Counted from the first letter of the stretch, positions 1 to 38,601 are shown. The stretch: DNA of 64,000 nucleotides from Candidatus Nomurabacteria bacterium (GCA_020632015.1 JACKGI010000001.1:156949-220948); one strand, 5' to 3'. The notes: a model not told the origin generated them from the sequence alone. Translations and numbers: made by a program.

Positions 1-263
1 CATTCCCCGGATTTGAAGATTGTGCGCCAGACAAGTTGTTGCGTGTGAAATATGCTTTTGGTCTTTCAAGAAAGGAGCACATTCCCAAATCAAAATCCTT
101 AGAAGAGAGTAAAAATGTAATCTTAAGCGCGTTTGAAGATCAGAAAAAGTCTATTCACAAGTCAAGACAGGTCATAACCTTTGGTCCCCAACTAAGCATA
201 GACTGTGAGTGCGAAGCGATTGCAACAATTGCAGGTCGGGTGCTTTCAATTATCAGGCGTTGA
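1..263 (+). CDS. 3' end of a protein-coding gene entering from upstream of the window (hypothetical)
   Basis: The reading frame is open from position 1 in the frame of the listed 36..263 ORF. It stops at 261-263. No recognisable motif. Confidence 0.3.
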   Translation, partial: FPGFEDCAPDKLLRVKYAFGLSRKEHIPKSKSLEESKNVILSAFEDQKKSIHKSRQVITFGPQLSIDCECEAIATIAGRVLSIIRR

Positions 264-299
264 TTTTTTTACCCGTTTGATCCAAGTAAGGGGAAATAG

Positions 300-1286
300 T
301 TACCACACTCTATTGGCAACACCCAGTAGATTTTGTTGGAGTTCTCGAATGGTGTCCAGACTGTCCGCGGCATTTTCTAGGGACAGTTTAACCATAATGT
401 TGTTTTGCTTTCGGTCTATTTGCTTTATGTCAGATTCTATAGAGGTATCAAGCTGGTATGTTGTTTTGCAGTATTCAAATTCTATTTCAAGTTGGTTCAA
501 ATCTAACTCAAGAGCTGCGTCGATGTCAGTGTATGTAGAGGGGGAAGATGCAAAACCGCTTCTGCTTTCCGCGTAAGTGGTTTTTAAGTATTCAGCATCA
601 GCCTCTGCTTGGGCCACACCATTTTCATATTTAGAAGTACAAAGTTCTAAATTTTGCTCCACAATGTCTTTTTTCTTTTCATATTGCTCTATGACCATAT
701 CCATACCCTCTGTTAAAGTCGCAGATTCTGTCTTAACTTGATCATAAGTTAATTGTTGGACCCGAACAGTTTCAGCTGCGATGGCAGCTTCTTCAGCTTT
801 TGCATTGATGATGTCTTCGTCTACGGTGGTGTTTGTAAGGACTGGAGTCGGAGCTTGTGTATCAGCCTCCATGCTCACTTCTGGTATGGAGACCTGCGCG
901 GGTTCATTAGTTGGTTTTGGAACATTAACAACTTGGGGCACTTCCTCCATGGCTGGTGATATGTTTTTGTTTGCGGTAGAAGTCTCAGCAATCTCTTCAG
1001 TGGTGGTTGGAGTCTGTGCTTCTAAAAATTCTGTTTCAGTAGATTCACTTACTAAAACAGGCTCAGGTTCCTCTGTTTTGTTACTAGAAAGCTGCTTGGT
1101 GGCCACAACCCCTGCTCCGGCGCCAACCATTAAAGCAGCCACAATGATTACGATAGGCAGAAAAGCGAATCCTTTTTGTTCCATTAGTCCAACTGTACTC
1201 ATTTTACTGTTCATGTCTAGAGTTAGTGTGATAGGGCATATGCTCCTAGTAAAACGCCTGCTACGGACACCCAGATGAAAACCCAT
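300..1286 (-). CDS. membrane-anchored hypothetical protein with coiled-coil, low-complexity ectodomain
   Basis: 328-aa ORF with an N-terminal TM helix (FAFLPIVIIVAALMVGAGAGVV). It has an E/T/P-rich linker and a heptad-like C-terminal region. Confidence 0.45.
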   Translation of the reverse strand: MGFHLGVRSRRFTRSICPITLTLDMNSKMSTVGLMEQKGFAFLPIVIIVAALMVGAGAGVVATKQLSSNKTEEPEPVLVSESTETEFLEAQTPTTTEEIAETSTANKNISPAMEEVPQVVNVPKPTNEPAQVSIPEVSMEADTQAPTPVLTNTTVDEDIINAKAEEAAIAAETVRVQQLTYDQVKTESATLTEGMDMVIEQYEKKKDIVEQNLELCTSKYENGVAQAEADAEYLKTTYAESRSGFASSPSTYTDIDAALELDLNQLEIEFEYCKTTYQLDTSIESDIKQIDRKQNNIMVKLSLENAADSLDTIRELQQNLLGVANRVW

Positions 1287-1600
1287 ACAGTAAGACCAAC
1301 TGTCTTTGCGGTGTTTGTATTAGTATCTTTCTCAGATTGTACGAGCAGGAACGCAGCTGTAAAAAATGCAGCTAGTGCTAGATAGAAATTTATTGCTAAT
1401 GCACCTATGCCTAGAAAGAAGATTAGTATAGCGATAGCTCCCTTTGATTCCTTTTTCATATTGAAATTATAGATTTGTGGTAGGAGCGGACACACAAAGC
1501 CCGCTACTAGGAAGGCCGAGGCCTCTACGTCAGTTTCCCAACGCAACGACACAATCGCCCTAATAACGGGTTCTCTATGATTGTGTCGATTTAAGACCAT
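1223..1600 (-). CDS. small integral membrane protein (hypothetical)
   Basis: 125-aa ORF with 3-4 hydrophobic helices. It overlaps the next gene by a few codons, in an operon-like arrangement. Confidence 0.4.
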   Translation of the reverse strand: MVLNRHNHREPVIRAIVSLRWETDVEASAFLVAGFVCPLLPQIYNFNMKKESKGAIAILIFFLGIGALAINFYLALAAFFTAAFLLVQSEKDTNTNTAKTVGLTVWVFIWVSVAGVLLGAYALSH

Positions 1601-1836
1601 GCCACCGATTACTCGATGGTTTAGGTCCCGCCCATTACGGACTAGTTGTCTTTGCCATAGTAGCTTATAAGTGTCGAAAACACCACTTTAGACACCCTGT
1701 CGTAGCTGTCTAACTGTCATAGATATAGGGTTGTTTTTAATAGTTTGTTGCAGAAAAACACCAAAAAAGAGCTTGAAGTGGCTAGCCGTGTGCCAAGACG
1801 ACTAGTTTTTATTTTCACTGTAGGTAAAATCTACTG

Positions 1837-2691
1837 ATGGCAAGGCAACTCAGTAGTGTAGGCAAACATCATCTGCAGACATGGAAATTATTAAGATCAT
1901 GCTTCGATTTTGAGAAGGATGTTCAGGATTTGAGAACAGGTGCATTAAAGGGGCTTAATTTCGGAGAGTCGCATAAGAAAGACAAAAAGTATGTAAAAGC
2001 CGCTCACTGTTTGATGGATAGGTATTGTCTACCTGGAAACTTTCTAATCCCTTTGATGGTGTACCTAGATAATCCGAATGAAGATATTGAAGAATTACTG
2101 CCTGATCGAAATTACTCATTTACCCACAGAAGAACATATGATGTGGAGGGTAACATTGATTGGTCTGGCATGGATATGCCTAGTGTTGAAGTGCAGATTT
2201 ATGCTCAGTTGACTGCGTCGGAGTGGAAGAATCTCCAGCGTGACTTTAAAGAATATTCTAAGTACAGCTTCCCAAACTCTGGGGCCCTTAAAAAGTCGCG
2301 CACGAAAGGCAGTGTGGAGCGAGATATTGCAGTTATGGAAAAACTACAGGCTACCTCAAAAGGTACTAAAGTTGAGGAGTACAAAGGATATCTAAAGAAA
2401 TTCCACGACCAACTTTTGTCAGAAGGGAAGGACCCTAAGACACACAAAGTTTTTAATCGGCTTAAAAATAAGAAGGCTGTGTTTCTAAGGTCTAAAACGG
2501 TGGGTAAGTATACTCGTGATGACATTGCAAAAGAGTTTGGTACTGATCGTAACCATATAGACAAGATTGAAAAGAGAACCAGAGAAACGATTGAAAAACG
2601 TTTCAAGGGGAAAAGGATGTCAGACCCTGATTCTGGCCTCACTATCAAAGAGTATCTTCGGAAACAGCGGGAGAGGAATAAGTCTCTTTAA
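1837..2691 (+). CDS. hypothetical protein with a C-terminal sigma-70 region-4-like HTH; cargo of the putative integrative element
   Basis: The C-terminus (YTRDDIAKEFGTDRNHIDKIEKRTRETIEKRF) resembles a sigma-factor region 4 HTH. It is followed by a terminator at about 2758-2781. The true start may be internal. Confidence 0.35.
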   Translation: MARQLSSVGKHHLQTWKLLRSCFDFEKDVQDLRTGALKGLNFGESHKKDKKYVKAAHCLMDRYCLPGNFLIPLMVYLDNPNEDIEELLPDRNYSFTHRRTYDVEGNIDWSGMDMPSVEVQIYAQLTASEWKNLQRDFKEYSKYSFPNSGALKKSRTKGSVERDIAVMEKLQATSKGTKVEEYKGYLKKFHDQLLSEGKDPKTHKVFNRLKNKKAVFLRSKTVGKYTRDDIAKEFGTDRNHIDKIEKRTRETIEKRFKGKRMSDPDSGLTIKEYLRKQRERNKSL

Positions 2692-2757
2692 GACAAAACA
2701 ATATACACTTTTGTCCGTATTTTGTAGGAGCTGGAAATGCTATGCTACAGCTAAGTA

Positions 2758-2781
2758 GCCGTCCGCAAGGGCGGTTTTTTT
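2758..2781 (+). terminator. rho-independent terminator
   Basis: Hairpin gccgtccgcaagggcgg followed by ttttttt. Confidence 0.6.
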
Positions 2782-3038
2782 GTTGCTTAAACAATTCAAT
2801 ACGATGTGAGTATCAGCGCACTCACTAAAATCAAACGGGCTCTAAACATCTGGTTAATACATGTAAATTCCTCGCTCTGACTGGCGGCTTGTCAACGAGG
2901 ACTCCCATGTGTTCGTCAGGTGCAACTTCTTCTTATCCGTATATTGAGGACAGTATGGATGATGATGTCTTAAGTATTGATACATATCGTGTCACTCGCT
3001 CTCATGGGAGGACAATAGCCGCTAAAACTACGCTAACT

Positions 3039-3191
3039 ATGTCGACAAAAAAGAAGGAAAGAAAGACAGTCCAAGTTCGAGTATCAAAGAAAATTCATAA
3101 GATGCTTCGTGCTTTGGCCTTGGAAGAAAAAATGACCATGTCGAAATTGGTCGACCTATCAATTAAAAGCTATATAAACAGAAACTATTAA
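3039..3191 (+). CDS. ribbon-helix-helix (CopG/Arc/MetJ-like) DNA-binding protein
   Basis: The C-terminal 50 aa (MSTKKKERKTVQVRVSKKIHKMLRALALEEKMTMSKLVDLSIKSYI) has the beta-strand plus two-helix RHH pattern. The internal Met at 3039 is the likely start of the longer 2889..3191 ORF. Confidence 0.4.
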   Translation: MSTKKKERKTVQVRVSKKIHKMLRALALEEKMTMSKLVDLSIKSYINRNY

Positions 3192-3336
3192 TCTATGAAC
3201 CAAAGAATTATCCAAATGCTATTTAGAGGGTCTGTCCTCAAAGGCTTGGAACAACAGTCATTTGAATTGGCTGCACCTATTGAAGAGGTTGTGATGGAAG
3301 CTGTAGAGGAGTATTTAGCAAGTAATTTAGAGCAGA

Positions 3337-3630
3337 ATGAGATCAATAGAAGCGAGATTCAAGAAATGCCAGGAAAAGAACCCGTCATACGGTAACTACA
3401 TTTGCTTAATGCAGGGAGTTTATAGGCAGGGATTCACTAGGAGGACCATCTACAATGCATTTAAGAAATTCATCCCAAGTGACGATTATCTTGAGGAGGA
3501 GATGCCACAGCTAATTTCTCAACTAGAGGTACACACTAAACGTTCTGAGGACGACATCTCAGGGCAGAAAAATGACCAGGAAGGTGCCTTAAATAATAAA
3601 CACGACCCAGACATCAAAGACAGAAAATAA
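3337..3630 (+). CDS. hypothetical small protein (element cargo)
   Basis: 97-aa ORF with no recognisable motif. It overlaps the 3195..3395 ORF, so one of the two may be spurious. Confidence 0.25.
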   Translation: MRSIEARFKKCQEKNPSYGNYICLMQGVYRQGFTRRTIYNAFKKFIPSDDYLEEEMPQLISQLEVHTKRSEDDISGQKNDQEGALNNKHDPDIKDRK

Positions 3631-3794
3631 TGACCCCAATTGAAACATTCAAAGAAATATTAGAGAAGGAGAATATTCAGGTTCCTGAGGAGTCTTTGGA
3701 GGTGTTTCGTGATCTGATTGACCTGCAGGCGGATTTGATTCTGGATCGTTGGTTATACGAGAAAGAAATGTCCGTGGCGGGGTAGAATAGAGTT

Positions 3795-5543
3795 ATGCAA
3801 AAGGAGCGACCAAAAACATGTTTAGCGAGTGCTCGTATTAGTAGCGCTCAGCAAATGGCAGGGGAGAGTCTAGACGACCAGGTCCGGGCTATTAAACAAG
3901 CGGCGGGACATAAGGGTCTAGAGATTCTTCCTGGTGGTGAGGTTGCGACTGAGATATTTACCGGAACGAAACGGCGGCCGGTATACGAAGAGCATATTCA
4001 GTACATCAAGGATAATCCTGGGAAGGTAGGCTATTACTTAATCCGTTATATCGACCGCTTTACTAGGGCCGGAGCATCTTCATACAACGAGATGAAGAAA
4101 GAGCTGGAGGAGCTTGGTGTTGCGCTGATAGACACAAACGGAATCATCCAAGAGTCACGCAACATGCCAGAACTTGCCGAGCTTGGTTTTGAGTATGAGT
4201 GGAGTAAAGAATCGCCAAGTGACATGACAGAGGTGATGTTGGCCACAACCGCCAAGCAGGAGCGTGACACTATTCTTAAACGAACCATTCCAAAACAAAT
4301 TGCCTACACCCAGAAAGGTTTTCAGATTGGTCGGCCTGATGATGGTTTTATGAATCATCGGACTCAAGTGGGAACACAGATTCGTTTTGTGCAGATTCCA
4401 GACCCGAAGCGTGCACCGTTTATCCAAAAGATTTTTGAGTTACGTGCCGCCAATAGACACACTGACCGAGAAATACTTCATATTGTGAATGAAGAGTTAG
4501 GCTTTCGGACCAAGAAGTTTCATCGCTGGAATAAGACACATACAGCGATCATTGGGGAAGGTGGTGGTAAGAAGCTGTCCATAAAACAGCTTCAGCGTAT
4601 TTACCAGCGGCCAGCCTATGCAGGTGTGCTTTGTGAGAAGTGGACCCACAATAAGCCTATTAAGGCGCAATGGGATGGACTGGTGAGTATTGAGCTTTGG
4701 AACAAGGCAAACCGCGGCAAAATCTACATCAAAGAATATGGTGATGATTTGTTAGAGATTCTGTACGACTACAAGACAGAGAGGCCGGTCTTTAAGCGTC
4801 TTCGTTACAATCCAGAATATCCATTCAAGTGTGTTTGTTGTCCTGAGTGTGGCAAACCTCTAAAGGGCAGTGCTCCACGGGGTAGAAAAGAAACATATCC
4901 GCGGTATCACTGTGAGCGTGGCCATAAGTCATTTACGATTGATCGGTCCCAAATGGATGAGACAGTCGGAACTTTCCTAGATAACGTGGAGTTTGATGAT
5001 GACTACACAAAGGTGTTGGAGGAAGTATTGGTCCGTAAATTACGTAAGAGACAACAGGATATTGTGCAGGAGTCAAAGAATCTGAATGAACGTGTGGCTA
5101 TGCTGAAGGCACAGCAGGCGAGTACACTCAAGGCACTTATCACTACAGAGAATCCAACCATCAAAGCGATGCTCGAAAAGGAACTTGAGAAAGTAGTGGT
5201 TGATATCAAGAAAGCTGAGTCGGTCCGGTTCTCAGTTGATCTCACTGAAGACAATATTGCTGAGTTGGTTAGTTACGCGAGGAAAATAGTGGAATCACCC
5301 AAAGAAGTGTTGATAGATAAAGACAATCCGCTCCGCCAGAAGCAGTTATTCAAGCTTTTCTTTGAGGACCTTCCAACCTATGAAGAATTGGATAGTGGAA
5401 CCGCTAAAAAACGCTTTCTTTTCAACAGGAATTGTATCGTCGAGACCCCTCAAAATAGTGAGAAATCCCATCAAGGGCGGCTACCGGGAATCGAACCCGA
5501 ACTATCGGTACCACAAACCGATGCACTAACCGTTATACTATAG
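3795..5543 (+). CDS. large serine recombinase (phage-type serine integrase)
   Basis: N-terminal resolvase catalytic domain with a catalytic Ser motif (ASARISSAQQ) and a YIDRFTRAG motif. It is followed by a recombinase domain, a Zn-ribbon (CVCCPECG...YHCERGH) and a long coiled-coil. The last 23 codons run antisense across tRNA-His. Confidence 0.8.
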   Translation: MQKERPKTCLASARISSAQQMAGESLDDQVRAIKQAAGHKGLEILPGGEVATEIFTGTKRRPVYEEHIQYIKDNPGKVGYYLIRYIDRFTRAGASSYNEMKKELEELGVALIDTNGIIQESRNMPELAELGFEYEWSKESPSDMTEVMLATTAKQERDTILKRTIPKQIAYTQKGFQIGRPDDGFMNHRTQVGTQIRFVQIPDPKRAPFIQKIFELRAANRHTDREILHIVNEELGFRTKKFHRWNKTHTAIIGEGGGKKLSIKQLQRIYQRPAYAGVLCEKWTHNKPIKAQWDGLVSIELWNKANRGKIYIKEYGDDLLEILYDYKTERPVFKRLRYNPEYPFKCVCCPECGKPLKGSAPRGRKETYPRYHCERGHKSFTIDRSQMDETVGTFLDNVEFDDDYTKVLEEVLVRKLRKRQQDIVQESKNLNERVAMLKAQQASTLKALITTENPTIKAMLEKELEKVVVDIKKAESVRFSVDLTEDNIAELVSYARKIVESPKEVLIDKDNPLRQKQLFKLFFEDLPTYEELDSGTAKKRFLFNRNCIVETPQNSEKSHQGRLPGIEPELSVPQTDALTVIL

Positions 5544-5548
5544 CCGCC
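5475..5548 (-). tRNA. tRNA-His (anticodon GTG) with a G-1:C73 pair
   Basis: Folded by hand. G-1; acceptor GCGGCTA/TAGCCGC; U8. D-stem GTAT/GTGC. Anticodon stem TCGGT/ACCGA with loop TTGTGGT (GTG). T-stem TCGGG/CCCGG with loop TTCGATT. Discriminator C pairs with G-1, which is diagnostic of tRNA-His. CCA is not encoded. Confidence 0.8.
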
Positions 5549-5771
5549 ATGTTTCAGGCGGGATTTTCGGAGAAAATCCCGCCGTCGTGGGTACATTTAT
5601 ACCTATTTTTTAGCAAAAAGTCGAGAGCTAAAAAATGTTTTTGTTTCTTATACTATATAATATAACCATGGACCAAACAGGATTAATGGTAACCTTGACC
5701 TTTACGCTTATTTTGGGTGCGGGGATTGGGTTTTATTTAGCAAGATTTATTTTTTAATTAAGATTTTTTGT

Positions 5772-6164
5772 ATGAAAGGATTTGTTGCAGAATTTAAGGC
5801 CTTTGCCATGAAGGGCAATGTGATTGACTTGGCAGTAGCGGTAGTTATTGGAGCGGCTTTTGGAAAGATTGTCTCCTCACTAGTAGCAAACATCATCACT
5901 CCAATTATTGGTTTAATCATGGGTGGAATTGATTTTTCTGGTATGGCTTACATGGTAGGGGACGCTGAAATCACTTATGGTGTGTTCATTCAATCAGTAA
6001 TCGACTTCTTAATTGTTGCTTTAGTTATCTTTATGGTAGTGAAAGGCATTAATAAGGCAAAGGACGCCTTGGATAAAGAGGAGGAGGTCAAAGAAGAGAA
6101 GCCAGCTGAACCGTCAGAAGAAGTAAAACTATTGCGAGAGATTAGAGATTCGGTAAAAAAATAG
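5772..6164 (+). CDS. mscL: large-conductance mechanosensitive channel MscL
   Basis: The N-terminus ([38 protein letters not shown]) is the MscL signature. Two TM helices and a charged C-terminal helix. Confidence 0.85.
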
Positions 6165-6181
6165 TTTGTTAAATATAAAGA

Positions 6182-6211
6182 GCCGGCCCCAAAGGGGTCG
6201 GCTCTTTTATT
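6182..6211 (+). terminator. rho-independent terminator
   Basis: Hairpin agccggccccaaaggggtcggct followed by cttttatttt. Confidence 0.7.
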
Positions 6212-6613
6212 TTGTCAAGAAAATACCCTATCGGGAAATAAAAATAAATGCTTGTATATATTGGCAAAAGCTGATTATTGATTCCTACTTTCACTGTTCA
6301 ATAGTTATCCACAGTCTGGGGCCATAAAAATATAAAATAGCCTTGTTTTTAAAGACTCCGCAGAAAGCGAGGTTATCCGATAGGTGGTAATATGAATACA
6401 TCACACGAAGTAGTCGTGTGTCGGAGGTAAGACACACGCTCCTCTCACTGAAGAGCCAGTCGCCATTTCTTAATGGTGGTGTGTTTGTCGCGACCCAGAT
6501 TGCGCCTAGACCTAATTGACTATCTAAACAAAGATAGAAACTCTTCCACCAATTACGTCTGTACGCAATCTACTAAATCAAGTTACTCATAAACAACGCT
6601 TATAAAGATTGAT

Positions 6614-7927
6614 ATGGAAATCCAAAATATCCGAAAACGAGACGGTTCAATCCAATCGTTTGATATCAGCAAAATAACCAGCGCTGTCGCGAAAGCCCTC
6701 TCTGAAACCGGAGAAGGAAATCGAAAGGACGCAGAAGCAGTCGCAGAACTAGCTCATCAAAAAGTTGTTGCCATGTGCGTGCAAGCAGGCACAGCAGCAC
6801 CAGAAGACCCACAAGCAAAAAAATGTATTGACGGTAACCCTGCGGTGGAAGAAATTCAAGACTTGGTAGAACAAGCCTTGATGGAAAAGGATTACTACAA
6901 TACAGCAAAGGCATATATTATTTATCGAAACGCTCGAAAGAAACTTCGAGAGCGAGATATCTTTGCCAAGAGACAAAATCTTAAACCATACGAATATCCA
7001 GAGCTGTATGAATACACTAGTGCTATTCGTCACTCATATTGGGTGCACACAGAGTTCAACTTTACATCTGATGTTCAAGATTTCCACATCAATGTAAGTG
7101 AATCAGAAAGAAGTGCAATCAAAAATTCGATGCTAGCTATCGCTCAGATTGAAGTAGCCGTAAAGACTTTCTGGGGAGACATCTACAAAAAAATGCCAAA
7201 GCCCGAGATTGGGGCAGTGGGAGCAACTTTCGCAGAGTCAGAAGTTCGTCATACTGACGCCTACTCACACTTGCTTGAGATTCTTGGTCTAAATGATGAG
7301 TTCACTAACATCAAGAACATTCCAGTTATTCAGAAGCGAATGAACTACCTAGAGAAGGTTAATGAACTTGCTCGAACTTCTGAAGATCGAGAATACTCAC
7401 ATGCAGTGCTTCTTTTTGCTCTGTTTGTTGAACACGTTTCATTGTTTTCGCAGTTCTTGATAATGATGTCTTTCAACAAGCATAAGAACTTATTCAAGGG
7501 TATTAGCAATGCTGTAGAAGCAACATCAAAAGAGGAGAATCTACACGGTATGTTTGGTATTGATGTTATTAATATCATCAAGGACGAACACCCTGAATGG
7601 TTCGATGAGAGTTGTAACAATCTAATTATTGAATCTTGTCGAGAAGCTTACGAGGCAGAAAGTGACATCGTTGATTGGATTTACGAAAAAGGTGAACTTG
7701 ATTTCTTGCCAGCTGCAAACGTAAAAGAATTTATTAAGCATCGACTTAATAACTCCTTAGTTTCAATTGGCCTACCAAGAATCTTTGAAGTCAGCGAAGC
7801 GTTGCTTGAAGAAACTGACTGGTTCGATAACGAAGTTATTGCAACTAAGCACGTGGATTTCTTCAACAAACGCTCAATCAATTACAACAAACGCTCAGCA
7901 AGTGTCACGAGTGATGACTTGTTCTAG
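6614..7927 (+). CDS. nrdB: class I ribonucleotide reductase beta subunit (radical-generating R2) with N-terminal ATP-cone
   Basis: The N-terminal 90 aa is an ATP-cone (VIKRDGSxxxFDxxKI-like: IRKRDGSIQSFDISKITSAV). The rest is a ferritin-like R2 with EVRHTDAYSHLLE metal-ligand motifs. Confidence 0.8.
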   Translation: MEIQNIRKRDGSIQSFDISKITSAVAKALSETGEGNRKDAEAVAELAHQKVVAMCVQAGTAAPEDPQAKKCIDGNPAVEEIQDLVEQALMEKDYYNTAKAYIIYRNARKKLRERDIFAKRQNLKPYEYPELYEYTSAIRHSYWVHTEFNFTSDVQDFHINVSESERSAIKNSMLAIAQIEVAVKTFWGDIYKKMPKPEIGAVGATFAESEVRHTDAYSHLLEILGLNDEFTNIKNIPVIQKRMNYLEKVNELARTSEDREYSHAVLLFALFVEHVSLFSQFLIMMSFNKHKNLFKGISNAVEATSKEENLHGMFGIDVINIIKDEHPEWFDESCNNLIIESCREAYEAESDIVDWIYEKGELDFLPAANVKEFIKHRLNNSLVSIGLPRIFEVSEALLEETDWFDNEVIATKHVDFFNKRSINYNKRSASVTSDDLF

Positions 7928-8107
7928 ATTCGGCAAAAATCAAAATTTCTTTGTTGAGCTTCTCGTTCTCAACACTCACCGTACAAACCGTACAACTCAT
8001 GTTTCGAAGCTCGCTCGCCTCGAAATTGATGATTTTAACCAAATCTCGGAGAAAATGTATAATGGTGTAACTTTAATCAAAATTAACGCATAACACACAG
8101 AAAATCT

Positions 8108-9796
8108 ATGGAACCCTGGTACTGGCTGAACGAAAATAGTCGCGCGTTTCTAGCCCGAGGATATCTGGCCGAAGGCCAAACAGCAGAAGAAAGAATTCGC
8201 GTAATCGCCGATACAGCTGAAAAATATCTCAAACGAGATGACTTTTCGGATAAGTTTTATGAGTACATGTCTAAGGGCTGGATATCGCTAGCTTCACCAG
8301 TCTGGTCTAACTTTGGAATTACCAAAGGCTTACCTATTAGTTGTTTTGGTTCGTATGTGGCTGATCACATGGGAAACATCTTGTACTCAAACGCTGAAGT
8401 AGGGATGATGAGTAAGTTTGGTGGTGGTTGTTCTGGTTACTTTGGAGCTTTGCGGGGTAGAGGAGCCAACATTTCAGATAATAACGGACATTCTTCTGGT
8501 TCAGTACACTTCATGCAATTGTTCGAAACATTGGTTGATGTGGTTTCTCAAGGTTCTGTACGACGAGGACATTTTTCTCCATATCTTCCAGCAGAGCACT
8601 CTGACATTATGGAGTTTTTGGATATTGGAACAGAAGGTAATCCAATCCAAAAACTAACTCATGGTGTAACAGTGGGGGATGAGTGGATGGAAAGCATGAT
8701 TGAGGGTGACGAAGCAAAACGTAAGATTTGGGCTCGTATTATTCAACGACGTGGTGAAATGGGATATCCATATATCATGTTCAATGACACTGCCAACAAG
8801 AACACGGTTGATGTCTACAAGGACAAAAAACTAGAAATCTACGCAAGTAACATGTGTAGTGAAATCATGCTTCCAAGTAAGGAAGATTGGTCATTTGTGT
8901 GTTGCTTGTCATCGGTTAACCTCCTCCATTACGATGACTGGAAGGATACTGATTTAGTGGAAACAATGATTGCCTTCCTTGATGCAGTTATGGAAGACTT
9001 TATTGTCAAACTAGAAGCGATGCGTGACGACGAGGATGTAGAAAAACAACAAGCGTTTGAATTCATGAAACGCGCGTACAACTTTGCAAAAGCAAATAGA
9101 GCTCTCGGCTTAGGTGTCCTTGGATACCACTCTCTCCTCCAATCAAAAGATCTGCCATTTGAAAGTGATGAAGCAGCTAAGTTAAATAAGGAAGTTTTCA
9201 AAGTCATTCAAGAAAAGGCAGAAGCTTCAACAAAAGAACTGGCTAAAGAACTTGGTGAGCCAGAAGTGTTGGAGGGGTACGGACGGCGAAATACGACCTT
9301 GCTTGCAATTGCTCCGACCACTTCTTCAGCTTTTATTCTTGGACAAGTGTCACAGGGAATTGAACCAATTTGGTCTAATTGCTACATAAAAGACGTAGCC
9401 AAGATGAAGGTGACCATAAAGAACCCAACTCTAGTTGAACTTTTGAAGGAAAAAGATAAAGACACCAAAGTAGTCTGGGATAGTATTCGAGACAATGATG
9501 GTTCAGTGCAACATCTGGATTTCTTAAGTGACGAAGAAAAAGCAGTCTTTAGAACTTTTGGTGAAATTGACCAAGCTAAAGTTATTGAACAAGCAGGAGT
9601 TAGACAGGAATTTATTGATCAAGGTCAGTCTTTAAACATCATGGTTTCTCCAGACGCTCCTGTAAAAGAAATCAACCAACTCTACATCAAAGCTTGGAAA
9701 GAAGGAATAAAGTCTTTGTACTACCAACATAGTCAGAACGCAGCTCAGCAATTAGTGCGAAGAAAGCTGGCAGAGAAGGAGGCTGAAGCAAAGTAG
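8108..9796 (+). CDS. nrdA: class I ribonucleotide reductase alpha (catalytic) subunit lacking an ATP-cone
   Basis: NMCSEI active-site Cys motif. C-terminal YY pair (KSLYYQHSQ) typical of class I NrdA/NrdE. No N-terminal ATP-cone. Confidence 0.85.
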   Translation: MEPWYWLNENSRAFLARGYLAEGQTAEERIRVIADTAEKYLKRDDFSDKFYEYMSKGWISLASPVWSNFGITKGLPISCFGSYVADHMGNILYSNAEVGMMSKFGGGCSGYFGALRGRGANISDNNGHSSGSVHFMQLFETLVDVVSQGSVRRGHFSPYLPAEHSDIMEFLDIGTEGNPIQKLTHGVTVGDEWMESMIEGDEAKRKIWARIIQRRGEMGYPYIMFNDTANKNTVDVYKDKKLEIYASNMCSEIMLPSKEDWSFVCCLSSVNLLHYDDWKDTDLVETMIAFLDAVMEDFIVKLEAMRDDEDVEKQQAFEFMKRAYNFAKANRALGLGVLGYHSLLQSKDLPFESDEAAKLNKEVFKVIQEKAEASTKELAKELGEPEVLEGYGRRNTTLLAIAPTTSSAFILGQVSQGIEPIWSNCYIKDVAKMKVTIKNPTLVELLKEKDKDTKVVWDSIRDNDGSVQHLDFLSDEEKAVFRTFGEIDQAKVIEQAGVRQEFIDQGQSLNIMVSPDAPVKEINQLYIKAWKEGIKSLYYQHSQNAAQQLVRRKLAEKEAEAK

Positions 9797-9803
9797 TACT
9801 GAA

Positions 9804-9831
9804 GAGCGCGACCTTCGGTCGCGCTCTTTTT
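9804..9831 (+). terminator. rho-independent terminator
   Basis: Hairpin agagcgcgaccttcggtcgcgctct followed by ttttt. Confidence 0.75.
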
Positions 9832-9852
9832 ACCCACGATAATATATATTGT

Positions 9853-10239
9853 ATGCAACAAGAAATTAAAACTGTTATTGAGAACTTTGCTTCAGCCGCC
9901 TTGGCAACCAATGGTCCTGAAGGATTAAACGTTGTTCCCATTTCGGTCGTAAATGTTCGTGGTGATGAAATTCATCTCTATGATTTTTTTATGAATCGAA
10001 CAGCAAAGAACATAAAAGCTAGTTCACTAGTAGCGTTCACTTGCTGGAGAGATTTTGTTGGAGTGCAAGTCAAAGCCGAGGTGGTATACGAGACAGAAGG
10101 GGAAGACTTTGATTTGGCGGTAAAGGAAATGAAGGAAAGATTTCCAGATAGAACACTCAGTGGTTTGATTAGGCTTACTCCAGTTGAAGTGTATGACGTG
10201 GCGCCCGGAGCAAGTCCAGATGATTTGCTGAAAGTTTAG
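9853..10239 (+). CDS. pyridoxamine 5'-phosphate oxidase-like FMN-binding split-barrel protein
   Basis: 128 aa. The pattern resembles the PNPOx/flavin-reductase-like fold. This is a family-level call only. Confidence 0.45.
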   Translation: MQQEIKTVIENFASAALATNGPEGLNVVPISVVNVRGDEIHLYDFFMNRTAKNIKASSLVAFTCWRDFVGVQVKAEVVYETEGEDFDLAVKEMKERFPDRTLSGLIRLTPVEVYDVAPGASPDDLLKV

Positions 10240-10446
10240 CCCAACCTGTTGAAATCTTTTCTTTACGGCTCTAGAGATAAGGTATAGTAGAAGTAAGCGA
10301 GAGAAATTCTCTTGCGAACATATTTTTATTTGAGGTTCGCCTCTAAAATGGCGCCCACCAGGGACTACGTATCGCGACTACGCAGTCCCCGCTGGGCGCC
10401 GTTTGTATTGTTGCCCCTGATATGATTAGCTTTATAGAATAGCTCT

Positions 10447-11391
10447 ATGAGAAGCACTTACTTAATATCACTAATATTAGTAATAGTTGTTGGTATCACA
10501 TATTGGTATCAGGCAACTGCTAATATCTGCCCAGCGCCAATCTCGTATAGGCTAGGAGAGATTGATGACTCTTTCGGTATTACAAAAGAAGAGGCTCATG
10601 AATATGCCACGAAGGCAGAAAGATACTGGGAAGAGATTTCTGGTAGAGAATTATTTGTTTTTGATGAAGAGGCAGATTTTACAATTGACTTTGTCTTTGA
10701 TGAAAGACAGGCTTCTGCCAATAGCGAAGAAACCCAAAGAGAGTATTTAGATAAAAAATGGGAGGAGAGTGAAGAGGTGAGAAAGACTGTCGAGAACCTG
10801 CAGACGGAATATAAATCACTTTCATTAGCCTATGAAGCTAAGGTTGATGCTTATGAGGAGCGATTGTCGGAATATAATTCCGAAGTAAATAAATACAACG
10901 ATAGAGGAGGTGCGCCTGCAGATGTTTTTAAAAAACTTGAAGAGGAAAGGGCTTCGCTAAGTAAAGAATCTGAAAGATTAAACAAAACAGCTAAACAGCT
11001 AAATGAGTTTGCGAGTGAAATAAATGAATTAAGTGAAAGAGGTAATCAGCTGGTGGATTCTTATAATCGAGAAGTAAATTCATATAATGAAAAGTATGGT
11101 TTTGCTAAGGAGTTTACTCAAGGAGATTATCACGGCATGAGTATTAGAATTTACAAATTCTCATCTGAACCCGAGGTTGTAACTGTTTTGGCGCATGAGT
11201 TTGGCCACGCTCTTGGGATTGGCCACGTTGATGAGGATGATTCTCTCATGTACTATTTGCTGGGAGATACTGATAGTTACCCAGTCCTGTCAGATGAAGA
11301 TGTTTCCGCCTTTATTGAGATATGTGGTGAGAATGAAACACTCGAACAAAGAATACGTAAAGGAATCAGAAGTTTATTAAGACTTATTTAA
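10447..11391 (+). CDS. membrane-anchored metzincin (matrixin/M10-like) zinc metalloprotease with a coiled-coil stalk
   Basis: N-terminal TM helix and a heptad-rich middle. The C-terminus has HEFGHALGIGH (HExxHxxGxxH) plus a Met-turn (SLMYY). Confidence 0.6.
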   Translation: MRSTYLISLILVIVVGITYWYQATANICPAPISYRLGEIDDSFGITKEEAHEYATKAERYWEEISGRELFVFDEEADFTIDFVFDERQASANSEETQREYLDKKWEESEEVRKTVENLQTEYKSLSLAYEAKVDAYEERLSEYNSEVNKYNDRGGAPADVFKKLEEERASLSKESERLNKTAKQLNEFASEINELSERGNQLVDSYNREVNSYNEKYGFAKEFTQGDYHGMSIRIYKFSSEPEVVTVLAHEFGHALGIGHVDEDDSLMYYLLGDTDSYPVLSDEDVSAFIEICGENETLEQRIRKGIRSLLRLI

Positions 11392-11401
11392 CAATTATTT
11401 T

Positions 11402-12199
11402 ATGAACGAGGGATTTTTTAATACAAAACAAATGCGCCTTTTATGCGGACTAACATTATTAATGGCTTTAATTGCTATGGGTTCATATGCAACTCTAAAT
11501 TTTGAAAAAGTTGGTTTTCTAAATCCTGTACCAGCAACTATTTCTGTTTCTGGGGAAGGTGAGGTATTTGCACCCGCGGATATTGGGCAATTTTCATTTT
11601 CTGTTAATGCAGAAGGTGAGAGCGCGTCTGAAGCACAGGAAGAGTCTGGAACCAAGATAAACGACATCATTGCTTACTTGAAGGAGCAAGGAATTGAAGA
11701 TAAAGACATCAAGACACAGAATTATAATTTGTATCCAAAGTGGCGATACGAAGAAAGGGTGTGTGCGTTTAATTCATATTGTCCTCCTGGAGAGCGAGTG
11801 CAGGATGGTTTTGAGGCAACTCAAAGTGTAACCGTTAGAGTTCGGGACACTAAGATGGCGGGCGCTATTGTGGCTGGTGTAGGTGAAAGAGGAGCAACAA
11901 ACATAAGTGGCTTGAACTTTACTATCGATGATGTTGAAACACTAAGGGAAGAAGCGCGAGCACTGGCTATTGAAGACGCAAAGACTAAGGCGCAGGTTTT
12001 GGCTGAGCAATTGGGTGTGAGTGTAGTTCGTTTGGCTTCTTACTATGAAAATGGTGGTGGTTATCCTGAGCCATACTACTTTGAAGCAAAAGCGATGGCA
12101 ATGGATTCAGCAGAAGAAGGTGGATTTGGTGGAGCTGAAATGCCAGTAGGAGAGAACAGTACTAAGGTTACTGTGAACGTTACTTACGAGGTGCGATAA
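11402..12199 (+). CDS. secreted SIMPL/DUF541 family protein (BP26/OMP28-like)
   Basis: Signal peptide. ISVSGEGEV...FSFSV and the later DDV...AKxKA pattern are typical of the SIMPL domain. Confidence 0.5.
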   Translation: MNEGFFNTKQMRLLCGLTLLMALIAMGSYATLNFEKVGFLNPVPATISVSGEGEVFAPADIGQFSFSVNAEGESASEAQEESGTKINDIIAYLKEQGIEDKDIKTQNYNLYPKWRYEERVCAFNSYCPPGERVQDGFEATQSVTVRVRDTKMAGAIVAGVGERGATNISGLNFTIDDVETLREEARALAIEDAKTKAQVLAEQLGVSVVRLASYYENGGGYPEPYYFEAKAMAMDSAEEGGFGGAEMPVGENSTKVTVNVTYEVR

Positions 12200-12226
12200 G
12201 TGGGGGTTTAAGAGTAAAGAGCGCCG

Positions 12227-12254
12227 ACTTCGTCGGCGCTCTTTACTTTTTCCC
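12227..12254 (+). terminator. rho-independent terminator
   Basis: Hairpin aaagagcgccgacttcgtcggcgctcttt followed by actttt. Confidence 0.7.
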
Positions 12255-12313
12255 TAACAGGAGTACTATATGAGAAATCGCCGGGAAGGCGTTTTTTAAA
12301 TGCAAACTAAAAT

Positions 12314-12502
12314 ATGAACAATCTTACAAAATACCTACGTGATACAGTGGCTGAACTTAAGCAAGTATCATGGCCAACTCAACATCAAGCAATGCTTTAT
12401 ACCGCATTGGTTATCGGCATTTCTATTGTCGTCGCGTTGTTTGTTGGGGCTTTTGATTACCTTTTTTCTCAAGGAATCAACGTTCTTGTTAATCGCTTCT
12501 AA
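12314..12502 (+). CDS. secE: preprotein translocase subunit SecE
   Basis: 62 aa. A KxxxxELKKVxWP-type N-terminus (VAELKQVSWPT) precedes a single TM helix. It lies immediately upstream of nusG in the canonical order. Confidence 0.75.
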   Translation: MNNLTKYLRDTVAELKQVSWPTQHQAMLYTALVIGISIVVALFVGAFDYLFSQGINVLVNRF

Positions 12503-12512
12503 TCTTAATAAT

Positions 12513-13058
12513 ATGGCTAAACAACACAGCACCGGGGAGCGTCACTGGTACGCAATTCATACATACTCAGGTTATGAAAACGCTGTAACTCGTAACCTAA
12601 AACAAAGAATTGACTCGTTGAACATGAACGACAAGATTTTTAACGTGGTTGTACCGACGGAGAAAAAGATTCGAGTAAAGGGAGGAAAGCGAGTGACAGA
12701 AGAAGAGAGAATCTACCCAGGTTACGTATTGGTGGATATGATTGTAGACGACGAGTCATGGTTTGTAGTTAGAAACACTCCTCGAGTAACTGGTTTCGTT
12801 GGTAGTGGAACTCAACCAGTCCCTCTAACAGAAGCTGAGTACAACTCATTGATGAAGCAAATGACAAGCGAGACAGTCAAGCATAAGGTTGACTTGTCTA
12901 ATGGTGATCTCGTTATTATTGCCGACGGTCCATTCAAAGATCTTGAAGGCAAGGTTGGAGAAGTTGATGAGGCAAGTGGAAAAGTTAAGGTACTCGTATC
13001 TATGTTTGGACGCGAGACTCCGGTAGAGCTTGATTTCCTTCAAGTTAAGAAGGTTTAA
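12513..13058 (+). CDS. nusG: transcription termination/antitermination factor NusG
   Basis: NGN domain (WYAIHTYSGYENAV) and a C-terminal KOW (GDLVIIADGPFKDLEGKVGEVD). The start is at the internal ATG at 12513, in frame with the listed ORF. Confidence 0.85.
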   Translation: MAKQHSTGERHWYAIHTYSGYENAVTRNLKQRIDSLNMNDKIFNVVVPTEKKIRVKGGKRVTEEERIYPGYVLVDMIVDDESWFVVRNTPRVTGFVGSGTQPVPLTEAEYNSLMKQMTSETVKHKVDLSNGDLVIIADGPFKDLEGKVGEVDEASGKVKVLVSMFGRETPVELDFLQVKKV

Positions 13059-13317
13059 GGAGCAGAAGCGACTATAAATTTCTTATGCAGACACTTAGTC
13101 ATGATTCGACCCTGACCTAGGGGAGAATCTGACTGCAGTGGGCTGCGAAAGAAGGTTTAATAGATACCTAGAAAAAAGTATTGGACTTAAGTTCTAGACC
13201 AACCCTACTTTAGAGCAAATAGCTTGCAAGACAAGGATTTCTCTTGTATCATGCGCGAGCTTCAGGTGAGGGTGGTTATGGAACACTCTTGCTATCACAG
13301 ATTTAATTAATCAAAAC

Positions 13318-13743
13318 ATGGCTAAAAAACTAGCAAAACAAATAAAAGTACAGGCTATTGCCGGAAAGGCAACTCCAGCTCCACCACTTGGTCCGGTATT
13401 GGGACAAGCTGGTATTAATATCGGTGAATTCGTTAACCAATTCAATGAACAAACTCGTGAAAACATGGGTGATGTTGTGCCGGTTATAATCAGCGTATAT
13501 GACGACCGAAGTTTTGACTTTGTTGTTAAGGTCTCTCCAATGTCACGACTAATCTTGAAGAAGATTGGTAAGCAAAAAGGTTCAGGTAAGAATCTTGTTT
13601 CAAAGGCTGGAACTATCACACGAGCACAAGTAAAGGAGGTGGCAGAACAAAAAATGCCAGATCTAAACGCAGCTTCTATTGAAGCAGCAATGAAGATTGT
13701 AGAAGGTTCTTGTTACTCAATGGGAATCACGGTAGTTGACTAA
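13318..13743 (+). CDS. rplK: 50S ribosomal protein L11
   Basis: AKKxxxQIKxQxxAGKATPAPPxGPxLG is the canonical L11 N-terminus. No rplA follows. Confidence 0.9.
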   Translation: MAKKLAKQIKVQAIAGKATPAPPLGPVLGQAGINIGEFVNQFNEQTRENMGDVVPVIISVYDDRSFDFVVKVSPMSRLILKKIGKQKGSGKNLVSKAGTITRAQVKEVAEQKMPDLNAASIEAAMKIVEGSCYSMGITVVD

Positions 13744-38226: not shown

Positions 38227-38601
38227 TTATTGATAATCAGCGAAACTTGCTGGGGTATAGACGAATTGTTTGGTAATTTTTGTTTCTCGTCCGTAACGAT
38301 CTTCTGCTCTAAGGGTGGCTATAGTATAGCCGTTTTCTAAGATGAGCGCCTCCTTGAAATGTCCCTGAGCATCAGTATAAATTGGTCTATCGTTTAGCCA
38401 CAGGTGTGAGATATTGAAGGCGATACCCGACAAGAATACTTGCCGGTTATTTTGCTTTAATTCAAGAGTATCAGTCATTGTTATTTGTGGACCAACAATC
38501 AAATATCTAGCTTGAAACAAAACATACGCAAACACAAAGATTAAACCAATTGCTAAGATTACTATCTTTACTAATGTGCGAAAAGGTAGAGTTTCAAGCA
38601 T
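38227..38601 (-). CDS. hypothetical exported/membrane-anchored protein
   Basis: 124 aa with an N-terminal TM helix. It is co-directional with ftsK and recA. Confidence 0.3.
   Translation of the reverse strand: MLETLPFRTLVKIVILAIGLIFVFAYVLFQARYLIVGPQITMTDTLELKQNNRQVFLSGIAFNISHLWLNDRPIYTDAQGHFKEALILENGYTIATLRAEDRYGRETKITKQFVYTPASFADYQ

Follow-up and report, generated by a model that had tools for sequence, protein, structure and literature searches.

A gene for a large serine recombinase (Int) lies on the plus strand at positions 3795 to 5543 of a 64,000-nucleotide (nt) stretch of Candidatus Nomurabacteria bacterium DNA (GCA_020632015.1, JACKGI010000001.1:156949-220948; here, the window), and it ends antisense to an intact host gene for tRNA-His(GTG) on the minus strand (5475 to 5548). 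Here, we describe Int, the 8.83-kb integrative element that encodes it, and the change in the Int C terminus that accompanies integration at the tRNA gene. ARAGORN called the tRNA at 5475 to 5547 as the sole tRNA of the whole window, with a G-1 encoded at 5548 and the CCA not encoded. The initial annotation had recognized both the recombinase ending at 5543 and the intact tRNA on the opposite strand, and both were recovered here. It placed the tRNA wholly inside the recombinase open reading frame (ORF), and the overlap is indeed extensive (69 nt, or 22 sense codons and the stop), but the Int stop codon TAG (5541 to 5543) falls within the 5' acceptor strand, and the tRNA reaches 4 to 5 nt past the ORF. 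The 582 residues of Int as encoded in the window thus comprise 561 residues encoded by the element and 21 residues (RLPGIEPELSVPQTDALTVIL) translated from antisense tRNA-His.

Int has the architecture of a large serine integrase. Pfam recognized a catalytic Resolvase domain (PF00239; E = 3.1e-10, 40.7 bits) and a second, Recombinase domain (PF07508; 25.2 bits against a cutoff of 21.1), as had been proposed, whereas the zinc ribbon proposed alongside them gave a weak match below the cutoff (Zn_ribbon_recom, PF13408; 16 bits). The four zinc ligands (C349, C352, C373, and H377) were nevertheless invariant in an alignment of 24 homologs. Likewise invariant were R14 and S16, an R-x-S motif that, with the match to PF00239, identifies the nucleophilic serine of serine integrases. 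Structure models placed a helix at residues 143 to 173 ahead of an alpha/beta domain, as expected for a Recombinase domain that follows long helix E, and two long antiparallel helices (402 to 450 and 454 to 476) form the inserted coiled coil. Moreover, Foldseek searches with the AlphaFold2 model of a homolog (P0027) returned full-length matches to the SPbeta, Bxb1, and phiC31 integrases (9dxd, 9iu2, and 9rah; E = 1e-10 to 1e-14), with only 13 to 15% identity to the solved structures. A search of the PDB with the single window Int sequence gave zero matches, and a search with an Int profile matched catalytic domains only. Int would be the enzyme that catalyzes integration of the 8.83-kb element.

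The element extends past the left edge of the window. An 8,907-bp NCBI contig (L080; JAGQMF010000033.1, GCA_020428855.1) is 100% identical to the window, without a mismatch, over L080 3430 to 8907 and window positions 1 to 5478. The first and last 77 nt of that contig are identical; therefore, it forms a circular path at k = 77, and the circle is 8,830 bp. The circle contains no tRNA, carries an intact attachment site attP, and encodes an Int of 588 residues. A second contig (L081; JACKGD010000003.1, GCA_020632115.1) matches the window with 0 mismatches over 16,164 nt, such that window position 1 corresponds to L081 4230. The far junction, attR, lies at L081 874 to 877, 3.35 kb left of the window start and beside a perfect terminator hairpin. 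The integrated element occupies L081 878 to 9707, which is 8,830 bp, the same length as the circle; 3,352 bp lie left of the window, and the right-hand 5,478 bp occupy window positions 1 to 5478 on the plus strand. The initial annotation had advised a search for the other junction left of 1837, and it was there that attR was found. Its interpretation of an integrative element at a tRNA is supported by the circle, attL, and attR, but its element began at 1837 and was therefore too short. We regard that interpretation as partly supported, right in kind and wrong in extent.

Further contigs bear on the border between element and host. In the assembly that contains the circle, another contig (L084) opens with the 77-mer found at both ends of L080 and runs on into tRNA-His and MscL; thus, the attP and attL junctions coexist in one sample. 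Other contigs with identical MscL, intergenic region, and tRNA carry diverged Int variants, and their divergence from the window ends at 5465 or 5474, which independently places the element/host boundary. The tRNA-His gene and its right flank are identical among contigs that carry different element variants. The copy of the window Int deposited at NCBI (P0001) is 561 residues long, is labelled "partial," and ends exactly at the tRNA border. We note that public annotation cuts Int either at the tRNA border or at the contig end (L080 7224 to 8907) and that gene callers often place the start of homologs at Met21, at the loss of the catalytic serine (the 562-residue entries P0002, P0005, and P0008).

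The junctions share four base pairs. In attP, an arm ending …GAGAAATCCCATCAA is followed by GGGC and by the arm ACGTACTGTCTCTCGGGTGGAACCAG…, and attL in the window has the same left arm and GGGC followed by GGCTACCGGGAATCGAACCC…. At attR, …GGGAGAGGTTTCATTTTCCTGAT precedes GGGC and ACGTACTG…, and the empty site attB would read terminator…CCTGAT, GGGC, and GGCTACC…. GGGC is the sole block common to attP, attL, and attR at the junction, and it is likewise present in the inferred attB. In the window it occupies 5475 to 5478, which are nt 70 to 73 of tRNA-His and the last four of the gene (GCCC on the tRNA strand). The attL region (5439 to 5514), delimited by comparison of the four sites, consists of the P arm, which is the 3' end of the Int gene, the core, and the B' arm, which is the acceptor 3' strand and the T-arm. 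The 3 nt to the right of GGGC are of the host type in attL and of the element type in attR, and therefore the crossover lies within GGGC. Thus, attL and attR carry the flanks expected of recombination between attP and attB at a short identical core without long repeats, and no direct repeat of any tRNA-His segment was found elsewhere in the window or at attR. The sites are imperfect dyads: the P' arm of attP (CGGGTGGAACC) resembles the T-arm in B' (CCGGGAATCGAACC), and the host B arm (GGTTTCATTTTCC) weakly mirrors P'. These resemblances fit a dyad site centered on the tRNA end, although the match could be chance.

Integration exchanges the C terminus of Int. The site attP lies inside the Int gene, in a stretch that encodes a disordered linker some 27 codons before the native stop, and the ORF of the free form reads 27 codons past attP to end …SHQG-HVLSLGWNQFEEVCIDWLEEARVCLRA. 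The recombinase C terminus is thus extended across the junction, as had been suggested of attL, and integration replaces 27 native residues with 21 antisense-tRNA residues. Because the window begins to the right of attR, regular-expression and HMM searches of it found no coding sequence for the native tail. Homologs of Int align colinearly as far as …S(H/Q)QG, beyond which they form two classes by C terminus. Among the best 120 homologs, 58 had a tRNA-type tail and 32 had the native tail, with its motif ..G..WN(T).E.....W(K/N)..F., while the rest were truncated or different. Tails of the tRNA type, such as GRLPGIEPE..VPQT..TVI., are translations of antisense tRNA in which GIEP is the T-arm; they overlap the tRNA by 29 to 137 nt, and their sequence follows the tRNA that is targeted. 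Such tails are not under selection as protein.

The native tail is conserved as protein. In 31 aligned coding sequences, codon position 2 was conserved and position 3 nearly free at the hydrophobic helix codons +3, +7, +8, +13, and +14 counted from the first Trp, and we conclude that selection acts on the native tail as protein; the two Trp residues and the Asn were set by the search pattern and carry no weight as conservation. The tail is conserved across clades with only 35 to 40% identity. Third positions were also conserved in the same sequences within GTGAGC near the core and within TGGAAC, a pattern expected of a putative protein-binding DNA site. The AlphaFold2 model of P0027, a homolog with the native tail (mean pLDDT 85), is a standard large serine integrase in which residues 550 to 569 form a disordered linker, the region encoded across attP, followed by a helix at 568 to 606 (pLDDT 75 to 81). 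The corresponding model of the 582-residue window Int has residues 547 to 582 as coil with a pLDDT below 50. The initial annotation proposed that conservation of the last 23 codons would distinguish a real C terminus from a chance extension. Those codons are kept in homologs that target tRNA-His, but only as tRNA antisense, and they differ with the tRNA targeted; that test was mis-specified because unintegrated copies carry a different, truly conserved tail. A third tail type, …GRRRRGCSN(YF/CV), was seen in five integrases of the His clade (P0018, P0020, P0022, P0030, and P0032). Contig L110 encodes it at 7670 to 7720 by GGGC-GACGTCGTAGAGGATGTTCGAAC…, a sequence that is not a tRNA but has the T-arm-like GGATGTTCGAAC within it; the sequence could represent either a divergent P' arm or a secondary target that is used recurrently.

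The arrangement recurs across the integrase family. In a protein search, 279 relatives passed E ≤ 0.001, few of which carry source names; those that are named come from Kaiserbacteria, Parcubacteria, and other Patescibacteria. When one genome per species was scanned, 285 related stretches were obtained, 79 loci of which were analyzed, and at least 51 of the 79 are labelled as Patescibacteria lineages. At 55 of these loci, the Int ORF ends within a tRNA gene on the opposite strand, and the tRNAs have eight amino acid identities (Glu at 36 loci, Lys at 6, His and Val at 3 each, Trp, Tyr, and Arg at 2 each, and Ile at 1). About 8 of the remaining loci have a T-arm-type tail (…GIEP…-like) with no tRNA called, mostly as the contig stops. 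By a rough estimate from the stop-codon fraction, chance alone would leave a frame open over 22 antisense-tRNA codons about one time in three, but the pattern exceeds chance because of its recurrence at 55 of the 79 loci. Moreover, at about 27 tRNA-fused loci, an orphan native tail lies on the same strand 1.3 to 7.4 kb upstream of Int, at the opposite end of the element. The clearer cases show two junctions of one locus that have only a short common core at the tRNA 3' end (GGGC, TGGTGCA, TTGGTGACC, TGTGGGCGA, or GTGCGCGA), and a terminator hairpin often flanks the far junction on its host side. The orphan tails and shared cores together lead us to conclude that integration splits the Int ORF and that attP is inside the gene. 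One related locus (L003) holds a composite array at 3003 to 13451. Its first element (3003 to 9684) begins with its own P', and the Int frame of that element continues into another, diverged P' with 66% identity over 68 nt. This second P' heads a 3.7-kb segment without an integrase, followed by a terminator and an intact tRNA-His. From reading of the sequences, we take that segment to encode a Phd/MazF-like pair and a patatin-like protein.

We conclude, with a probability that we put at about 90%, that an 8.83-kb Patescibacteria element was inserted by its own large serine recombinase at the 3' end of tRNA-His, that its Int gene spans attP, and that integration swaps the Int C terminus. By the mechanism of the enzyme family, Int dimers would bind attP (…CATCAA-GGGC-ACGTACTG…) and attB (the tRNA terminator, GGGC, and the acceptor strand and T-arm), and strands would be exchanged at the central dinucleotide within GGGC. 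With the crossover inside GGGC, the tRNA stays intact and no long direct repeat arises. Integration cuts the Int frame and leaves the conserved amphipathic helix (…GWNQFEEVCIDWLEEARVCLRA) at the far end of the element, and the integrated gene runs into host DNA, antisense to the tRNA, up to the first stop, gaining 21 unselected and predicted disordered residues. Excision would rejoin both parts and restore the 588-residue Int. The two isoforms would be expected to differ in activity or stability. In the integrated state, Int expression may be damped, since transcription of int would meet that from the tRNA promoter head-on and the int mRNA would be complementary at its 3' end to tRNA-His.

Comparison with known systems sets the element apart from each of them. 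Protein-coding genes are the typical targets of characterized serine integrases, and tRNA genes are those of tyrosine integrases. Int resembles the large serine recombinases of phages (phiC31, Bxb1, A118/LI, and SPbeta SprA) in its domain set (resolvase, recombinase, and a zinc ribbon with an inserted coiled coil), in its full-length fold, and in its imperfect dyad att sites with a short common core and no long repeats. It differs from them in its target, the 3' end of a tRNA gene, in the location of attP inside its ORF, in its two isoforms, and in its mostly Patescibacteria hosts. Like the islands and prophages of tyrosine integrases (P4-like), the element exploits a conserved target and has its integrase gene directly beside the 3' end of a tRNA gene that stays intact. 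Unlike them, it uses a serine recombinase and a 4-bp core, has no 15- to 50-bp direct repeat of the tRNA, and does not rebuild the tRNA from element DNA; the tyrosine recombinase and the tRNA 3' repeat at both ends that define a classical tRNA island are both missing here.

The closest precedents for an integrase that differs with integration state would be, by analogy, the split integrase of the SSV1 type, the immunity of BPs-like phages, and synthetic integrase fusions. The integrase of the archaeal fusellovirus SSV1 has attP within its gene, such that integration at a tRNA partitions the ORF and excision restores it; it is a tyrosine recombinase, and its gene is split into two large parts. 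Our element shares with SSV1 an attP inside the integrase ORF, the free form of which reads 27 codons further, but its enzyme belongs to the serine recombinases, and integration displaces just the last 27 of the 588 codons, leaving the catalytic and DNA-binding domains intact. Integration of BPs-like phages, which is catalyzed by a tyrosine recombinase, removes a C-terminal degradation tag from the repressor. Integration-dependent immunity of this kind has been described for mycobacteriophages of clusters G, N, and P such as BPs, in which attP lies in the 3' end of the repressor gene and integration alters the repressor (PMC3694055, PMC4557955). Here too, integration state alters the C terminus of the protein whose gene spans attP, but the split gene is that of the serine integrase itself and not that of a repressor, and the element is therefore not of the BPs type. 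Finally, fusion of an accessory module to the integrase C terminus by a flexible linker switches directionality in synthetic fusions of integrase and recombination directionality factor (RDF) (PMC5737554), and a fusion of phiC31 Int to gp3 used a 32-residue linker (bioRxiv 10.1101/2025.05.02.651858). Unlike these engineered proteins, Int would have a natural helix as its tethered module, about 25 residues long and absent while the element is integrated.

Perhaps, Int records its own integration state. The 588-residue form, with its tethered WN…W helix, might license integration in cis, and the 582-residue form might differ in directionality, activity, or stability; the helix would act, for example, on the junction of the coiled coil and zinc ribbon or on the 51-residue product of an ORF directly upstream of Int (plus strand, 3630 to 3785). 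Such a recording of state is a tentative proposal that we consider more doubtful than probable. If true, the position of attP would hard-wire directionality or a lysogeny-like stability throughout a large clade of integrases that insert at the 3' ends of tRNA genes in Patescibacteria.

Alternatively, the tail swap might be a neutral by-product in a compact element with attP in a region that encodes a tolerant linker. The isoforms would then be alike, and a separate factor, such as the 51-residue protein, would set direction. The freedom with which tRNA-derived tails vary in length and sequence indicates that they are unselected, and the crossover falls in codons of a disordered linker, both of which fit neutrality. 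A homolog of the 51-residue protein was found by iterative jackhmmer just upstream of Int at 50 of the 79 loci and was conserved by tblastx in L001 to L004; it was assigned to no family, and from this conservation it is a candidate accessory or directionality factor. If the small protein is the directionality factor, the tail swap need not be a switch. Neutrality fits less well with a native tail that is conserved as protein and predicted to be helical, since loss without effect at every integration is unlikely for such a tail. We give a neutral swap close to an even chance.

Several observations weigh against the conclusion that the element is mobile and inserted by its own Int. A scan of JGI metagenomes for the exact attB, a sequence that is itself only inferred, gave 0 matches to an empty site. 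The L080 circle rests on an assembly overlap, and a tandem duplication could in principle produce the same overlap instead of a free circle. Three other contigs that encode the native tail (L107 to L109) were checked for circularity, and none of the three had terminal repeats. Copies with the native tail are also present in the composite array of L003 and on long chromosomal contigs that have no tRNA close by (L013, L017, L035, and L037), and therefore an intact attP is no proof of an episome.

A decayed, immobile remnant with an inactive Int that runs into the tRNA by chance would account for the absence of an empty site from the metagenomes, and a frame open over 22 codons is not unlikely by chance. 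The attP junction is nevertheless intact, with 100% identical sequence, in another assembly, attR is intact, and all of the catalytic and zinc residues are conserved. Moreover, a single host species has several diverged variants at this site, and we consider a remnant very unlikely. Finally, the suggestion of the initial annotation that the element carries or reconstitutes tRNA-His, in the way of classical islands with a long duplicated 3' segment, draws on the abutment of tRNA and Int familiar from tyrosine-integrase islands but has a negligible probability given a circle without a tRNA, sites with only GGGC in common, no second copy of a tRNA segment in the window or at attR, and a tRNA and right flank that are identical in contigs with different elements.

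The arrangement matters beyond this locus. Serine integrases that insert at the 3' ends of tRNA genes, of at least eight kinds, form a large and diverse clade, against the textbook division of targets between serine and tyrosine enzymes. Each integration or excision switches Int between two C-terminal isoforms, which offers a natural case for the question of serine integrase directionality. Small mobile elements of this class are common in Patescibacteria, the mobile DNA of which is, to our knowledge, poorly characterized. They also supply candidate pairs of att site and integrase for conserved tRNA targets, and they reveal that annotation pipelines truncate such genes at the tRNA and label them "partial," as for P0001. 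A full-text search of the literature, with subscription journals outside its coverage, found no account of tRNA-targeting serine integrases or of a serine integrase whose gene contains attP. The enzyme family is known, as are insertion at tRNA genes and the logic of an attP within a gene; what appears to be undescribed is their combination and how widely it occurs in Patescibacteria.

Among the genes of the element, none was recognized as serving replication, conjugation, or virion formation. A scan of IMG/VR for the His-type P' sequence gave 0 matches, and thus there is no sign of a viral element. The same pattern gave 16 matches in JGI metagenomes; most were junctions of host flank and P', and one was an attP junction. 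A 1,706-bp JGI contig (L102) has a 123-nt terminal direct repeat and a junction of host flank and P'.

The remaining genes of the element are cargo. Two ORFs on the minus strand, at 300 to 1286 and 1223 to 1600, lie left of 1837, where the initial annotation began the element, but are cargo and not host genes. The first (L080 3729 to 4613) is 294 to 304 residues in public records, with a longest ORF of 328, and the second (L080 4652 to 4888) is small and hydrophobic, with a public call of 78 residues (1223 to 1459); neither had a Pfam, PHROG, or PADLOC match. On the plus strand, a 284-residue protein (1837 to 2691) had no Pfam match and a faint C-terminal sigma-region-4-like helix-turn-helix (HTH), seen as a match of residues 200 to 271 to phrog_351 (RNA polymerase sigma factor; E = 0.0033). 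Just past its gene, a terminator scan found an intrinsic-terminator-like hairpin with a T-run at 2757 to 2776 on the plus strand, in agreement with an earlier call of a terminator for these genes. A 94-residue ribbon-helix-helix (RHH) or Arc-like regulator follows (plus strand, 2907 to 3191), with a match to phrog_3180 (Arc-like repressor; E = 2.7e-6) and weak RHH and HicB matches in Pfam. The sigma-like and RHH proteins had both been named from the sequence before, and the assignments stand but with faint or weak matches only. Between the regulator and the 51-residue ORF, gene calls on L080 and L081 gave two small plus-strand ORFs of 66 and 73 residues (3195 to 3395 and 3409 to 3630), neither of which matched a Pfam or PHROG family. 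Left of the window, L080 254 to 3692 encodes a ThiF-type E1, a Prok-E2_E protein, and an 80-residue ORF, and beside the E1 and E2 genes are two that encode an HTH protein resembling CapH (E = 6.7e-14) and an M78 peptidase resembling CapP (E = 2e-31). The set of genes suggests a ubiquitin-like, defense-type module whose regulators would be the CapH/CapP-like pair.

The flanks of the tRNA are host DNA. A hairpin with a perfect 12-bp stem and a 3-nt loop (12+3+12) lies 5' of tRNA-His at 5557 to 5583; the stem is as first described, but the hairpin ends one base short of the 5584 given then. It had been counted as part of the element but is host sequence, located between a promoter-like block and the tRNA 5' end, and the corresponding position in a related host (L002) is also occupied by a hairpin, in which one stem base differs and the loop is longer. 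The block that follows it (TATACCTAnTTTTTAGnnAAAAGTCGAG; hairpin and block together span window 5557 to 5630) is conserved in L002 and L003 and reads as a -35/-10 promoter for tRNA-His on the minus strand. The hairpin has no T-run on either strand, and the terminator scan gave no call; because of the missing T-run and the host origin, we rejected it as a terminator for Int. From its position, it probably belongs to the leader or promoter-proximal region of the tRNA. The host left flank contains a perfect hairpin, GAAACCTCTCCC-GAAAAA-GGGAGAGGTTTC, between an A-run and a T-run, which would be the native terminator of tRNA-His.

Other sequences related to tRNA-His were encountered. The best match from the search of the window for repeats of the tRNA, 18 of 21 nt to the tRNA-His 5' end (GGTGGCTATAGTATAGCCGTT) at 38314 to 38334, was dismissed as chance; it falls within a 124-residue ORF between recA and ftsK. 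An inverted copy of 15 to 18 nt of the tRNA-His 3' end (GCGCCCGATAGCCGCCCC) lies just past the tRNA terminator in L003 (13318 to 13336) and also in L099, L102, and L103 upstream of P', and it could be a scar, an outer part of attB, or a gene remnant. Finally, a 1.3-kb contig (L090) carries the same tRNA-His with one mismatch and the same right flank as the window. Its first 26 nt, left of GGGC (GGAAGTATTTCAGGTAGTGAATTATT), are unlike both the window Int and the host left flank and are either another occupant of the site or a variant empty site.

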